From the IMG/VR virus record IMGVR_UViG_2778261689_000008, positions 1 to 28,040 of that record: a stretch of DNA of 28,040 nt, one strand, 5' to 3'. Positions within the stretch are counted from its first letter, which is position 1. Each line of letters opens with the position of its first letter. Made by a program: the position numbers and the translations under genes. Under the pieces are notes generated by a model. That model had not been told where the DNA came from and searched no databases. It saw nothing but the letters and a program-made list of their open reading frames with translations. This DNA comes from a virus. Taxonomy: Duplodnaviria > Heunggongvirae > Uroviricota > Caudoviricetes. Of this stretch, positions 23,847-27,669 are shown one piece after another.

Positions 23847-24009
23847 GATTCCTCCTTGCTGCCAGTCGCAACCATTTTTTATCAACCAGGCTGGCGGTAT
23901 ATCCGAGCAGAGTTGGTATTTCGGATGGCTTCAGCTCAGGTTTACGCTTACGACGATTTGGTACTTTGTAGATGTGTCCGTTCATGACACGAATAAGCGG
24001 TGTAGCCAT
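23839..24009 (-). CDS. ninE: NinE-like small protein (56 aa; not in the supplied track)
   Basis: Translates [56 protein letters not shown]; 1-nt overlap with the ybcN stop; overlaps the ybcO start. Confidence 0.6.
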   Translation of the reverse strand: MATPLIRVMNGHIYKVPNRRKRKPELKPSEIPTLLGYTASLVDKKWLRLAARRNHG

Positions 24010-24464
24010 TACGCCTCCTGCTTGTCGCGCAGCAGCTGGAACTCGCAGCTCTGCGGAATAGTCAGGTGGCAGCCAATATTCATCGCCCAGGCTTCAACCT
24101 TACACAGGAAGACATACATCTCTCCGGTATCGAGATCGGAGGTATGACGTAATGACTGAATGGTGGTGATTTCACCGGTTACGACATCAACCAGTTCTTT
24201 GGTTTCATAACCGAGATAAGTGTGTTTGAGTGCATCTTTTACCCATACTGCAGTAGCGAACGTTTTCCCCCTGCTGATGAGGTATTCGCTGATTTCGCTG
24301 TACCACATGTGGCTGAGTGCATTCTGGGAAAGACTGCGTCTCTCGCGCCACGGTTTAAGCACCATGCGAAAGCATTTTCCGTCCTCCAGATAAGGCTGGA
24401 TCTGCTGACCGATAGCGGTGAAGTTACCGCGATGCAATTTGATACCGTCTTGTGGGAGGTTCAC
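24009..24464 (-). CDS. ybcN: YbcN-like nin-region protein
   Basis: 151 aa; GTG start with GGAGGTGA upstream; position and size match DLP12 ybcN. Confidence 0.7.
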
Positions 24465-24507
24465 GCTTCACCTCCGCAGAGGTCAAACGCTAGATGCAAA
24501 GAATTGC

Positions 24508-24626
24508 AGGTGCATTTCTGCATCTGTGAAGGGAGAAGAGAGTTTGGATTGTATGTGCGCATAAACGTCCCCGTTTAGCGCAGAAGTCACCAGAGTTGTT
24601 CAGGCTCCGATGACATGATTATGGCG
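24508..24626. repeat. 119-bp direct repeat, copy A (upstream of ybcN)
   Basis: About 110 of 119 positions identical to 26508-26626 with no indels; contains a near-palindromic 18-mer (24508-24525) and a 10-bp-stem hairpin (24557-24581). Confidence 0.85.
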
Positions 24627-24651
24627 AGTTGATTATCGCAAATCAAAGGTT

Positions 24652-25008
24652 TTAATTGTGCTTTATTCCTTCAAGCGTTGCCTTCATACCAACCAAAGAA
24701 ATGTTTAGCTCTCCAACTTTCTCAGGGCTATATAATTCAGAATGAAGCCAATATTCTGATTTATCTAAACATCTTTTAGCCAGCTCTCGATCAAAGTCTA
24801 CGACTTGGGAAGACGCTTCATACCAAAGCCTATAAAGTTTTTCTTCTTCGTTTGGGTTATTAGGCTCACCACGTTTTAATTTTTCAGTATATAAAATTGT
24901 TGAACAAATCGCAGGAGTTAATCCAGTGATTGCCCTCTGCCGCAGATCGGATTTGTTTGTTATCCACCCTAACAGACGATCTCCCATCCATGTGATAATT
25001 GTATCCAT
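24652..25008 (-). CDS. AT-rich orphan protein, 118 aa, no recognised family
   Basis: Track ORF, visibly AT-rich relative to flanking phage genes; GAAGGG 9 nt upstream of the ATG. Confidence 0.55.
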   Translation of the reverse strand: MDTIITWMGDRLLGWITNKSDLRQRAITGLTPAICSTILYTEKLKRGEPNNPNEEEKLYRLWYEASSQVVDFDRELAKRCLDKSEYWLHSELYSPEKVGELNISLVGMKATLEGIKHN

Positions 25009-25469: not shown

Positions 25470-26078
25470 CTACTGTAATCGATCCGAACGTAAATGCGGC
25501 AAAACTCGACTCCACTTATCATCCTGCCACGGCCGGAATTTTACATGCGCCGTTTCTCTGGCAAGGATTGCTCGCGCCTTGCTGAGTATCAGGGGATATT
25601 CCTGACTGATAGAAGTAAAGCGACCGGCTTCGCGGTGCTCCGCAACCTGAAGAAGTGGAGTAACGTTCTGGCAGGCGATTAACATCGTATCACTTGCTCG
25701 CCATAACCAGGCGAGTGTGCAAAGTTCGTTATCAGTGAATTGTTTTGTGATTGGTGATTGTTGAACTTCTCGATCGAGAATATCCAGCACCCAGCGGCGG
25801 AATTCTTTGGCCACAGGAGTACGAGCAAACATGGCGATCAAATGGGCTCCGCGAAGGCTAAATACTCGAGACTCCTGCATTCCACGAGGGGTGGTCACTT
25901 TGACCACCCTTGTCATCATATCTGTGAATTCATCTGAGTGCCGAGAGTAAATGCGCTGAACTGCTTTATCGTCCGCATATTCCAGTGCTAAACCAACTTC
26001 AGTGGCAGTAAGCCAAATTCTGTTATTGTGGCAAATCGGGGTAAACGTCGTTTTGTGGAATGCTAATTGAGTAGTCAT
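25470..26078 (-). CDS. Bro-N / antirepressor-like protein (tentative)
   Basis: 202 aa; the N-terminal half (FHKTTFTPICHNNRIWLTATEVGLALEYADDKA...) resembles Bro-N/KilA-N antirepressor domains. Confidence 0.55.
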   Translation of the reverse strand: MTTQLAFHKTTFTPICHNNRIWLTATEVGLALEYADDKAVQRIYSRHSDEFTDMMTRVVKVTTPRGMQESRVFSLRGAHLIAMFARTPVAKEFRRWVLDILDREVQQSPITKQFTDNELCTLAWLWRASDTMLIACQNVTPLLQVAEHREAGRFTSISQEYPLILSKARAILARETAHVKFRPWQDDKWSRVLPHLRSDRLQ

Positions 26079-26233
26079 AGTATCACCTCATCAGGTTAAC
26101 CATCACCACCAACGACGCCAATCGACTGGTGGTGAACTGTGTAAGGTTGGCGTAACCGGCTACTCAAACCCGGCGCTTCCGAAGAAGCCCTCACACAGCC
26201 CACCATAATTTGGGCATAGCCGTGCTTAGCGCA

Positions 26234-26256
26234 CAAAAAAACCGCTTAACGCGGTA
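26234..26256 (-). terminator. Intrinsic terminator-like hairpin with U7
   Basis: Minus strand: ACCGC-GUUAA-GCGGU followed by UUUUUUUG; lies between the small hydrophobic ORF and the Bro-N-like gene. Confidence 0.4.
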
Positions 26257-26341
26257 TGCGTTGAGTAGTATCCCGGGACGCCAATCCCGTGTGCCGATTT
26301 TGCGGCAACGCACAGAATATAGCGCCGGATAAATCATGTCG

Positions 26342-26431
26342 TCAACCCCAGTAAATGGACACCATGATGATCACAGCCATAGCTGCTACAACAGTTACAA
26401 CTACCTCAGGCCAAAACATAACGATTTCCAT
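26342..26431 (-). CDS. Small hydrophobic peptide, 29 aa (trimmed from the 82-aa track ORF)
   Basis: MEIVMFWPEVVVTVVAAMAVIIMVSIYWG with AAAGGTGAT immediately before the ATG; the longer track ORF would start inside repeat B, which is non-coding in copy A. Confidence 0.35.
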   Translation of the reverse strand: MEIVMFWPEVVVTVVAAMAVIIMVSIYWG

Positions 26432-26507
26432 ATCACCTTTAGCCGCCAGACGAATAGAGACTCCCAATTCTGGCTGTCGAAGTAAAACACCGAATGTAAA
26501 AAATCGT

Positions 26508-26626
26508 AGGTGCATTTCTGCATCTGTGAATGGAGATGAGAGTTTGGATTGTGTGTGCGCATAAACGTCCCCGTTTAGCGCAGAAGTCACCGGAGTTTTT
26601 TAGGCTCCGATGACAATATTATGGCT
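26508..26626. repeat. 119-bp direct repeat, copy B (exactly 2000 bp from copy A)
   Basis: See copy A; the hairpin (26557-26581) and the near-palindromic 18-mer (26508-26525) are conserved without change. Confidence 0.85.
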
Positions 26627-26709
26627 TTTTTATTTCTAAATTCAAAACTTGAAAATATTAAGATTCGCTTTTAAATCAACCCTAAACAACTGAAGATAAC
26701 ATCTGATAG

Positions 26710-27669
26710 TCAGCTAATTGCAAAGATATTAAAAATAACTTTAGGGAGTGCGAAAGATGAAATAAAAAGCACAACCATAAAAATGGCATGCTTAATAAAT
26801 GATGAGCTTGTAAAAAAAGCTCCTCCCTTGCTAATTCCTGCCATAAAAACAAAGATAAAGCTAATTAAGCACGACCATATCACTAACAAAACTGAGATTG
26901 ACATGCTTAAAGACATATCGCGAGAAAATACGTTTACTGAAATAGAAATGAAGGTAAAGAAAGAAGCAAATAAAGCAATGACACCCAGCATTGAGTTCCT
27001 TGCTGTAATTACTTCCGATTCAAAGCTTTTAACTTTCTCATGTATATCTTTTTCAGCATTTGATAATGTTGCATCAAATTGCTCAATCTTTGCAGTTTGC
27101 TGAGATAATGAAGACATTACCTTACCTATTTTTCTTTTAGTATCATTAATATTCTTTTTGCTCTTATTCAACTCTTGCGAAAAATTGGTTAGTTGATCAT
27201 TGATATTTTTCCAGAGGATGTTATCAATATCACTTTTTGTATATTTTTTTACATTCTCTTTATTAAAAGAAATTGTAGATTCAGAATTATTATTAACAAA
27301 GTAATTAGATAAAATGGCATTAGAGACAGTATTATCCATCACCGGCACAGTTGCTTTTGAACTGTATTTTATAGCTTCATGCAACATTTCTTTTTCATTA
27401 ACAAAAAGAGAGGTTTTTATTAAGTTTTGTGATGCCGCGTCTTTGATAGATATACTTTCCCGCTCTTTATTTGAAGCTGTTGCAGTTTTATTATCTATCT
27501 GCAAATTACTAATTTTTTGCACCCCTCCTGTATACGTAGATGTACTATTCGATACTTGTGAATTAGAATAAAGTGAATGATGCGCAGTTCTTTTTGCCAT
27601 GTCATCGTTGACTATAGCATTATTTTTTGCAGTTCTTTTTATATCCTTTTTATTATCATCCTTATTCAT
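26710..27669 (-). CDS. AT-rich protein, 319 aa: Asn/Ser/Lys-rich coiled-coil N-terminal region plus three C-terminal transmembrane helices; candidate exclusion/abortive-infection effector
   Basis: Track ORF; strongly AT-rich; GAGGTG RBS; C-terminal hydrophobic segments LGVIALFASFFTFISISVNVF, SISVLLVIWSCLISFIFVFMAGI, AIFMVVLFISSFALPKVIFNIFAI; 14-bp gap to the upstream ORF. Confidence 0.65.
   Translation of the reverse strand: MNKDDNKKDIKRTAKNNAIVNDDMAKRTAHHSLYSNSQVSNSTSTYTGGVQKISNLQIDNKTATASNKERESISIKDAASQNLIKTSLFVNEKEMLHEAIKYSSKATVPVMDNTVSNAILSNYFVNNNSESTISFNKENVKKYTKSDIDNILWKNINDQLTNFSQELNKSKKNINDTKRKIGKVMSSLSQQTAKIEQFDATLSNAEKDIHEKVKSFESEVITARNSMLGVIALFASFFTFISISVNVFSRDMSLSMSISVLLVIWSCLISFIFVFMAGISKGGAFFTSSSFIKHAIFMVVLFISSFALPKVIFNIFAIS

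Follow-up and report, generated by a model that had tools for sequence, protein, structure and literature searches.

Locus and overall architecture

The window analyzed here, i.e. the whole stretch of 28,040 nucleotides (nt) of the IMG/VR record IMGVR_UViG_2778261689_000008, is a lambda-like prophage of Escherichia coli, with 100% identity to strain L9, that carries two copies of a structured element. All features described below lie on the minus strand. Along this strand the replication genes O and P and two open reading frames (ORFs) of unknown function are followed by copy 2 of the element, an IsrK-like RNA (RF01394), a C4-like RNA (RF01695), a Bro-N/P22AR antirepressor gene and another ORF of unknown function, and then by copy 1, a coding sequence of 33 codons and the genes ybcN, ninE, ybcO, rusA, ylcG and Q. 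The copies form a direct repeat (24479-24634 and 26479-26634; 134 of 156 positions identical, spacing exactly 2000 nt), which encloses two short blocks singled out by a first-pass annotation of the sequence. Both blocks can be read directly and are the same in both copies. The 18-mer aggtgcatttctgcatct (24508-24525 and 26508-26525) is near-palindromic, with arms aggtgca/tgcatct complementary at six of seven positions, while gcgcataaacgtccccgtttagcgc (24557-24581 and 26557-26581) can fold into a stem of 10 pairs that contains a single bulged base and is capped by the loop tccc, which reads GGGA on the minus strand. Our analysis assigned both blocks to a single unit of ~185 nt on the transcribed strand, composed of a promoter-like site, four hairpins (H1-H4) and a short upstream ORF. 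We consider it probable that this unit is a cis-acting structured 5' leader RNA, through which lambda-like prophages control ybcN/ninB, the first nin-region gene. The first-pass annotation did not notice two of the hairpins and the promoter-like site, nor the U-rich tract that follows the 18-mer hairpin or the double role of the GGGA loop as a Shine-Dalgarno sequence of the conserved short ORF. The gene proposed to be regulated by copy 1, according to its annotation and to the position of the leader upstream of loci anchored by NinB/YbcN, is ybcN (24009-24464), a member of the Orf/NinB family.

Homologous loci were fetched via the downstream protein (four divergent NinB/YbcN lineages) and from GenBank phages, to avoid selecting on the RNA itself. 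A nhmmer profile detected the leader upstream of 79/80, 80/80, 47/77 and 48/53 loci of the respective lineages, in 200 unique versions. One locus scored as negative (L212) turned out to be a very diverged member with the same layout; in the other negatives the upstream gene abuts ninB. The leader is present in 2,778 of 5,426 complete E. coli genomes (about half), including the DLP12 prophage of K-12, and in prophages of Klebsiella, Enterobacter, Raoultella and Entomohabitans; the latter two are the only genera retained from a scan of 596 Gb with a 17-nt pattern, which was too short and yielded mostly chance matches. The source genome (NZ_CP142044.1) has three places that match the leader, hence a third copy resides in another of its prophages. 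No Rfam family matches the leader: with Rfam 15, a scan of the window at gathering thresholds reports only C4 and isrK elsewhere, and a permissive scan of 24430-24670 gives only a chance match (E = 7.2).

Conserved secondary structure

The minus-strand RNA of copy 1 is predicted to fold with -57.7 kcal/mol, compared to -38.0 +/- 4.0 for shuffled sequences (z = -5.0, reached by 0 of 200); for the plus strand the difference is unremarkable (z = -2.2). The hairpin formed by the 18-mer (H3) includes one additional pair (24507-24526, CAGAUGCA-GAAA-UGCACCUG, with a conserved A.C mismatch), and its covariation was evaluated on a structure-blind alignment of 46 representatives made with MAFFT only (A1). 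On A1, 96.7% of the cells of the 10-pair helix pair; both sides have changed in eight of the 10 pairs, with 44 cells showing changes of this kind. None of 500 shuffles reaches the observed values, slid controls remain at or below 0.05, and RNAalifold predicts H3 independently, de novo. The arms CAGAUGCA/UGCACCUG give way to CCGAUGGC/GCCACCGG, UCGGCGUC/GAUGCUGA and others in other lineages, with the complementarity intact. Such replacement of half-sites is the signature of an RNA helix and not of an operator for a dimeric protein, as which the 18-mer had originally been interpreted. Most homologues lengthen H3 by three more pairs. Its loop is GNRA in 62 of the 73 distinct versions and non-GNRA in 11, which indicates a preference rather than a rule. 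An alternative fold, H3b (AUGCAGAAA with UUUCUGCAU), which is preferred by the minimum free energy (MFE) structure of the single sequence, was rejected: it shows no covariation (one pair, and 342 of 500 shuffles reach the observed value).

For the whole unit, a covariance model was built from six gap-free seeds and used to realign the 73 distinct versions. Of 2934 cells in this model-guided alignment, 95.1% pair, and changes on both sides occur in 38 of the 42 pairs; the covariation score is 0.551 versus 0.178 in shuffles (0 of 500 reach it), with slid controls not exceeding 0.06. Compensatory changes affect nine of 10 pairs in H1, all 10 in H2, eight of 10 in H3 and 11 of 12 in H4. A covariance model built exclusively from other phages scores the two copies of the window at 91.7 and 89.4 bits. 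Wobble pairs identify the strand, as there are 319 G.U cells but only 38 A.C cells; this excess indicates an RNA structure on the transcribed strand and argues against a DNA operator. H3 alone is ambiguous in this respect, owing to two conserved A.C mismatches, and it is the remaining helices that settle the strand. These two symmetric mismatches (24510/24523 in the window; columns 110.131 and 114.127 of A1) are kept in 41-42 of the 46 representatives while their neighbors covary, and would read G.U on the opposite strand.

The freedom of the two blocks from substitutions had previously been taken as a sign of selection. Selection on both blocks is upheld by the wider comparison of homologues, but the argument from the two copies of the window alone is weak: between 24617 and 24500, two of 57 stem positions differ versus nine of 61 non-stem positions (Fisher p = 0.055, borderline), and stretches identical between the copies extend beyond both sub-elements.

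The same data bear on the possibility that we are dealing with elements acting at the level of DNA. Parts of the unit were described in this way in records from 1996 and 2012: the phage 82 record X92588 annotates orf33, its ribosome-binding site, a putative -35/-10 and a "possible regulator-binding site" at H1, and the phi80 record JX871397 annotates the arms of H2 as "IR4". Together with the annotation of ylcH in K-12, these records present the parts as DNA repeats or operators, or as a hypothetical protein, without the RNA structure, H3, H4, the covariation or the coupling layout described here. In the variant favored by the phage 82 depositors and by the first-pass annotation, a dimeric regulator of the local promoter would use the 18-mer and/or the dyad of H1 as operators; alternatively, the unit could be a mere recombination "linker" at a mosaic junction. 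It is true that dyad symmetry is present, that H1 occupies about +1 to +29 relative to the promoter-like site, that a separate TTGAT-N9-ATCAA dyad covers the -35, and that the leader forms a mosaic boundary and flanks a gene cassette as a direct repeat. However, for the 18-mer, H1 and H2 an operator is contradicted by the conservation of complementarity and not of the half-site sequences, the 319:38 ratio of G.U to A.C would be meaningless in duplex DNA, and a neutral linker would show neither compensatory changes nor a kept open frame. We therefore regard a DNA-level explanation as highly improbable, although a role as a linker may exist as a by-product and probably explains the origin of the duplication.

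Hairpins H2 and H4 and the upstream ORF

The second block corresponds in copy 1 to H2 (24557-24581, GCGCUAAACG-GGGA-CGUUUAUGCGC). Its compensatory changes in all 10 pairs, with 97.6% of cells paired, confirm the earlier suggestion of a real RNA structure on the minus strand, and its GNRA-type loop holds up as well (GGGA in 65 of the 73 distinct homologues and UGGGAA in four more). As was also noted correctly, no U-tract follows H2 on either strand; ACAUACAAUCC comes next, a terminator scan reports no site, and H2 is not a terminator. The loop GGGA (24571-24568) represents a Shine-Dalgarno sequence, and an AUG (24562-24560) is located 5 nt downstream, inside the 3' arm of the hairpin. Across the homologues GGGA precedes an ATG or GTG in the 3' arm of H2 by 3-6 nt, and at least five sequence versions of H2 exist, all of which retain the GGGA loop and the start codon in the 3' arm.

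This start codon opens the upstream ORF of 33 codons (24461-24562; RefSeq WP_001303586.1), a homologue of phage 82 orf33 and of K-12 ylcH (b4588), which has the same layout. Its stop codon TGA overlaps the GTG start of ybcN (GTGA, 24464-24461). A frame of 30-42 codons that runs from the 3' arm of H2 to a stop at the main start codon is present in all 198 unique full-length versions, with an RTGA overlap in 174 and a paired start codon in 194 of them. The encoded peptides are poorly conserved (127 distinct sequences) and the frame survives insertions and deletions between hairpin versions; for instance, the peptide changes from SQMQKCTC to SPMAKATG exactly where the stem of H3 covaries. Since the frame is kept while the peptide varies freely, it is the integrity of the reading frame that is selected, and not the peptide sequence. 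A conserved functional peptide was judged unlikely, as the peptide is not conserved and the 33-aa product has no match in PHROG.

The last hairpin, H4 (24463-24490, GCGUUUGACCUC-UGCG-GAGGUGAAGCGU), was found in the MFE fold and shows compensatory changes in 11 of 12 pairs over three sequence versions. It is predicted to cover both the Shine-Dalgarno sequence GGAGG and the GUG start of ybcN. The inner four bases of the loop in H4 of the ybcN type are UGCG, UUCG, UCCG or UACG, i.e. they follow the UNCG pattern.

Hairpin H3 as a candidate terminator

Directly 3' of H3, copy 1 contains the U-rich tail CAAUUCUUUGCAUC (24493-24506), which reads GAUUUUCUGCAU in most homologues and has a column conservation of at least 90%, including third codon positions. 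The stem of H3 always abuts UUUCUGCAU/UUUUUGCAU, even in lineages in which the stem sequence is unrelated. The predicted stability of H3 is -7 to -16 kcal/mol, comparable to that of the stem of the adjacent IsrK terminator, three to five of the next 8 nt are U, and a terminator-like site was flagged by the scan at 24522-24505. By its geometry, H3 with the U-rich tail may thus act as a leaky intrinsic terminator that is suppressed by a translating ribosome. K-12 transcriptomics lists the ylcH RNA on its own, without ybcN (PMC8910356), which lends the terminator idea weak support.

Promoter-like site and hairpin H1

Homology between unrelated prophages starts abruptly at the -35 of a promoter-like site, which in copy 1 comprises TTGATT (24646-24641), a 17-nt spacer and the -10 CATAAT (24623-24618), as found by a consensus scan. 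The -10 is NATAAT in 178 of 202 versions and the -35 is TTGNNN in about 185 of 202; some lineages have the extended -10 TGTTATAAT in place of the -35. The leader appears to carry its own site of the sigma-70 type. In most E. coli- and phi80-type versions (L005-L301) a TTGAT-N9-ATCAA dyad extends over the -35 and the spacer (24624-24646). Its half-sites resemble those of FNR, with the wrong spacing (N9 instead of N4), and no such dyad exists at copy 2 of the window; it may represent a candidate DNA operator.

H1 (24586-24614, GUCAUCGGAG-CCUGAACAA-CUCUGGUGAC) has a 10-pair stem, including two G.U pairs, with compensatory changes in nine pairs. Its apex is a U-A-closed, GNRA-like GAACA pentaloop. 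The loop class U-GRRCA-N occurs in about 95% of the 202 versions, i.e. the sequence of the loop is conserved while the stem covaries. Two viral contigs, L202 and L208 (positions about 515-600), possess three tandem H1-like hairpins with the loop C(U/C)GAACA(A/G) ahead of H2, which suggests a repeated binding site for some factor.

Loops of this kind invite comparison with lambda boxB, whose loops are GAAAA or GAAGA. The apex of H1 shares with boxB the U-A-closed G-R-R-N-A pentaloop, but it differs in a two-base 5' bulge below the apex, in the absence of boxA, in the genomic position, and in being shared by phages with unrelated or absent N. A nut site was rejected, because boxA (CGCUCUUUA) has no match within one mismatch near either copy, even though the loop itself is boxB-like. 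In a broader form of this idea, H1, perhaps with the GNRA loops of H2 and H3, would bind a phage or host protein and thereby modify RNA polymerase or repress translation, in the manner of N/boxB, put RNA or coat-protein operators. The conserved loop on a covarying stem, its form of the GAANA loop of boxB and the triple hairpins of L202 and L208 fit this proposal, as does the operator-like layout of H2, with the Shine-Dalgarno sequence in the loop and the AUG in the stem. We nevertheless hold it to be very doubtful, given that, apart from the lacking boxA and Rfam match, the site does not follow PL or PR, phages of differing N specificity share this loop with one another and with HK639, which has no N, and copy 2 of the window has lost the loop motif and retained the stem. 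Recruitment of a protein does not exclude control of ybcN/ninB by the leader, and the two are compatible. The adjacent Bro-N/P22AR protein had been named as a candidate regulator, and nothing in our analysis ties it to the leader.

Second copy and the antirepressor cassette

In copy 2, a consensus scan finds the promoter-like site TTGAAT, a 16-nt spacer and CATAAT (26618-26645). Comparison of the sequences shows that the 10-pair stem of H1 is intact (26586-26614) and its loop degenerate (CCUAAAAAA), while most other loci of this type retain the CCUGAACAA loop. H2 (26557-26581), read directly and recognized by the covariance model, is the same as in copy 1, and the core of H3, i.e. the 18-mer (26508-26525), is followed by CGAUUUUUUACAU. 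The place of ybcN is taken by a small hydrophobic ORF of 29 aa (26342-26431, MEIVMFWPEVVVTVVAAMAVIIMVSIYWG), which is unannotated in RefSeq, has its own Shine-Dalgarno sequence and matches the uncharacterized family phrog_4612 (E = 1.7e-16). A small hydrophobic ORF (29-31 aa) follows all 18 versions of the copy 2 type, in two peptide versions, with one group truncated; judging by its sequence, it may encode a small membrane or toxin-like peptide. Compared with type I toxin-antitoxin systems of the hok/mok kind, the hydrophobic ORF of 29-31 aa is present, the overlap with the leader ORF is variable, and no antisense RNA was found at copy 2. Versions of this type retain the promoter, H1, H2, H3 and the U-tail and have lost H4. 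The notion of copy 2 as nothing but a relic was rejected, since a conserved small ORF lies behind it; with the loop of H1, H4 and the coupling degraded, it is a relic only in part.

As an alternative, the unit could be a gene of a small RNA (sRNA) of about 120 nt, from the promoter through H1, H2, the spacer and H3 to the U-tail, possibly with a dual function like IsrK. Such an sRNA would target its own long isoform or other molecules in trans, with coupling being secondary. Copy 2 and all 18 versions of its type keep exactly the part from the promoter to the U-tail and lose H4, and the coupling geometry is not kept. The single-stranded C/U-rich spacer between H2 and H3, the terminal hairpin with a U-tail and the solitary ylcH RNA of K-12 mentioned above agree with such a gene, for which IsrK, an sRNA that derives from a leader and activates the long isoform of the same RNA (PMC4825925), sets a precedent. 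On the other hand, our analysis identified no target, a terminator of the Hfq type would call for a stronger U-tail, conservation within the unit is lowest in the spacer that separates H2 from H3, a review of phage sRNAs yielded no description of it, and a pure sRNA would not need the frame to the main start that is kept in 198 of 198 full-length versions (174 with RTGA). On balance, an sRNA gene as the primary function seems to us rather unlikely.

The cassette between the two copies (25470-26307), recognized by Rfam, annotation and PHROG, consists of the IsrK-like RNA (26307-26235; 58.7 bits for RF01394), the C4-like RNA (26210-26125; 74.8 bits for RF01695) and the Bro-N/P22AR antirepressor gene (26078-25470), which also has PHROG anti-repressor matches. 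The segment 25470-26345 is a complete Gifsy-1-like module with the promoter TTGACG-18-TATATT (26345-26316), in which the C4-like RNA is the equivalent of STnc1160/orf45'. An ORF spans the C4 region and ends 18 nt short of the antirepressor ATG, without an overlap. Regulation of the leader by the neighboring IsrK-like and C4-like RNAs was considered and rejected, as the energies of their duplexes with the leader are within the range of shuffled sequences.

When loci were anchored by the antirepressor, the leader was found on both sides of the cassette in nearly all those with at least 65% antirepressor identity. The copies are 1.5-2.5 kb apart there, so that the spacing of exactly 2000 nt in the window is incidental. 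The sequences 5' of the leader vary widely between prophages, which shows that the leader marks a mosaic junction that takes insertions of accessory genes; in the window, copy 1 is directly preceded by a 118-aa ORF (24652-25008, phrog_12412) and copy 2 by an AT-rich 319-aa ORF (26710-27669, phrog_25335), both of unknown function. Recombination between leaders at such a junction is the most likely origin of the direct repeat, and the sequence data fit a leader that behaves as a portable cassette.

Relation to known systems

We class the leader as a novel family of RNAs whose mode of regulation is of a kind already known, namely a leader ORF with translational coupling and possibly attenuation. 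Literature searches on ylcH, ybcN, terminators of the nin region and phi80 IR4, which did not cover the 1996 phage 82 paper, found no functional study. The leader combines three hallmarks of coupling: a stop codon that overlaps or abuts the main start, a predicted sequestering helix (H4), and constrained nucleotides with a free peptide. A related arrangement is known from tap-repA of plasmid R1 and repY-repZ of ColIb-P9, in which translation of a leader ORF with a stop/start overlap unfolds a hairpin that hides the main ribosome-binding site, and which are governed by cis-encoded antisense RNAs (CopA and Inc RNA, respectively). As in these plasmids, the leader ORF runs through a predicted helix over the main Shine-Dalgarno sequence and start codon and has overlapping stop and start codons; in contrast to them, we detected neither an antisense promoter nor a complementary RNA. 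The search for an antisense or trans-acting RNA for the upstream ORF comprised a scan that gave no plus-strand promoter and tests of complementarity to the IsrK-like and C4-like RNAs only, neither of which exceeded shuffled sequences.

With respect to termination, lambda tR2 lies between the replication genes and ninB, and in pyrBI the attenuator hairpin is located inside a translated leader ORF. H3 resembles tR2 in its position and terminator geometry and pyrBI in being a hairpin within a leader ORF. It differs from them in that there is no sequence similarity to tR2, the U-tract is weaker, the unit has its own promoter-like site, and termination here is a candidate function.

The closest precedent for the design logic, by analogy, is the IsrK-orf45-anrP region of the Salmonella prophage Gifsy-1, for which a leaky leader terminator that gives rise to a short RNA, an upstream ORF conserved in nucleotides and variable in peptide, an AUGA overlap and translational coupling were demonstrated experimentally (PMC4825925). 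Both systems display their own promoter, a structured leader, an upstream ORF and a stop/start overlap in the early region of a prophage, the promoter, the terminator and the coupling being predictions in our case. There is no sequence or Rfam relationship between them, and our leader is distinguished by four covarying hairpins with GNRA or UNCG-type loops and by the start of the upstream ORF inside a hairpin. The downstream gene is ybcN/ninB or the small hydrophobic ORF here and the antirepressor there.

Proposed mechanism and implications

We infer the promoter, the terminator and the coupling from the nucleotide sequence, and on this basis the leader could operate as follows. By default it would be closed, with H2 limiting initiation at the upstream ORF and H4 blocking ybcN/ninB, and H3 with the U-rich tail would end part of the transcripts early to yield a short RNA of about 115-125 nt. 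A ribosome that translates the upstream ORF would melt H3, allowing read-through, and H4, and termination-reinitiation at RTGA would then start ybcN/ninB. What would count in the upstream ORF is the track that it offers to ribosomes, and not its peptide.

Several observations weigh against this model. The U-tail is only moderately U-rich (three to five of 8 nt) and is weaker in copy 1 of the window (AAUUCUUU). The two invariant A.C mismatches in H3 and the sequence-conserved loop of H1 are left unexplained. In the copy 2 type, the upstream ORF terminates at varying distances from the small ORF, between -96 and +93 nt, and an early stop is present in three groups, which indicates that coupling is not maintained there, though H1-H3 are. 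Finally, the model-guided alignment is biased towards the structure. The bias is lessened by the slid controls and, for H3, by the alignment made with MAFFT alone, and from both we argue that the covariation signal is real.

In an extended version of the model, the leader is a dual-function RNA. Its short form, terminated at H3, would be an abundant sRNA of the prophage and act in trans to activate either the long isoform of the same RNA or targets in the host, and the loop of H1 would recruit a protein. We consider this combination decidedly unlikely; if true, it would provide lambda-like prophages with an N-independent switch, active in the lysogen, that controls nin-region genes and a small membrane peptide.

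A very common leader with very clear covariation has been absent from Rfam, and our interpretation re-reads ylcH as a regulatory leader ORF and not as an ordinary protein-coding gene. If the proposed control of ybcN/ninB is correct, it predicts how this gene and downstream nin genes such as rusA stay silent or switch on in lambda-like prophages. The two copies further illustrate that leaders of this presumably regulatory kind can be carried as cassettes from one prophage gene to another, where they mark mosaic junctions.

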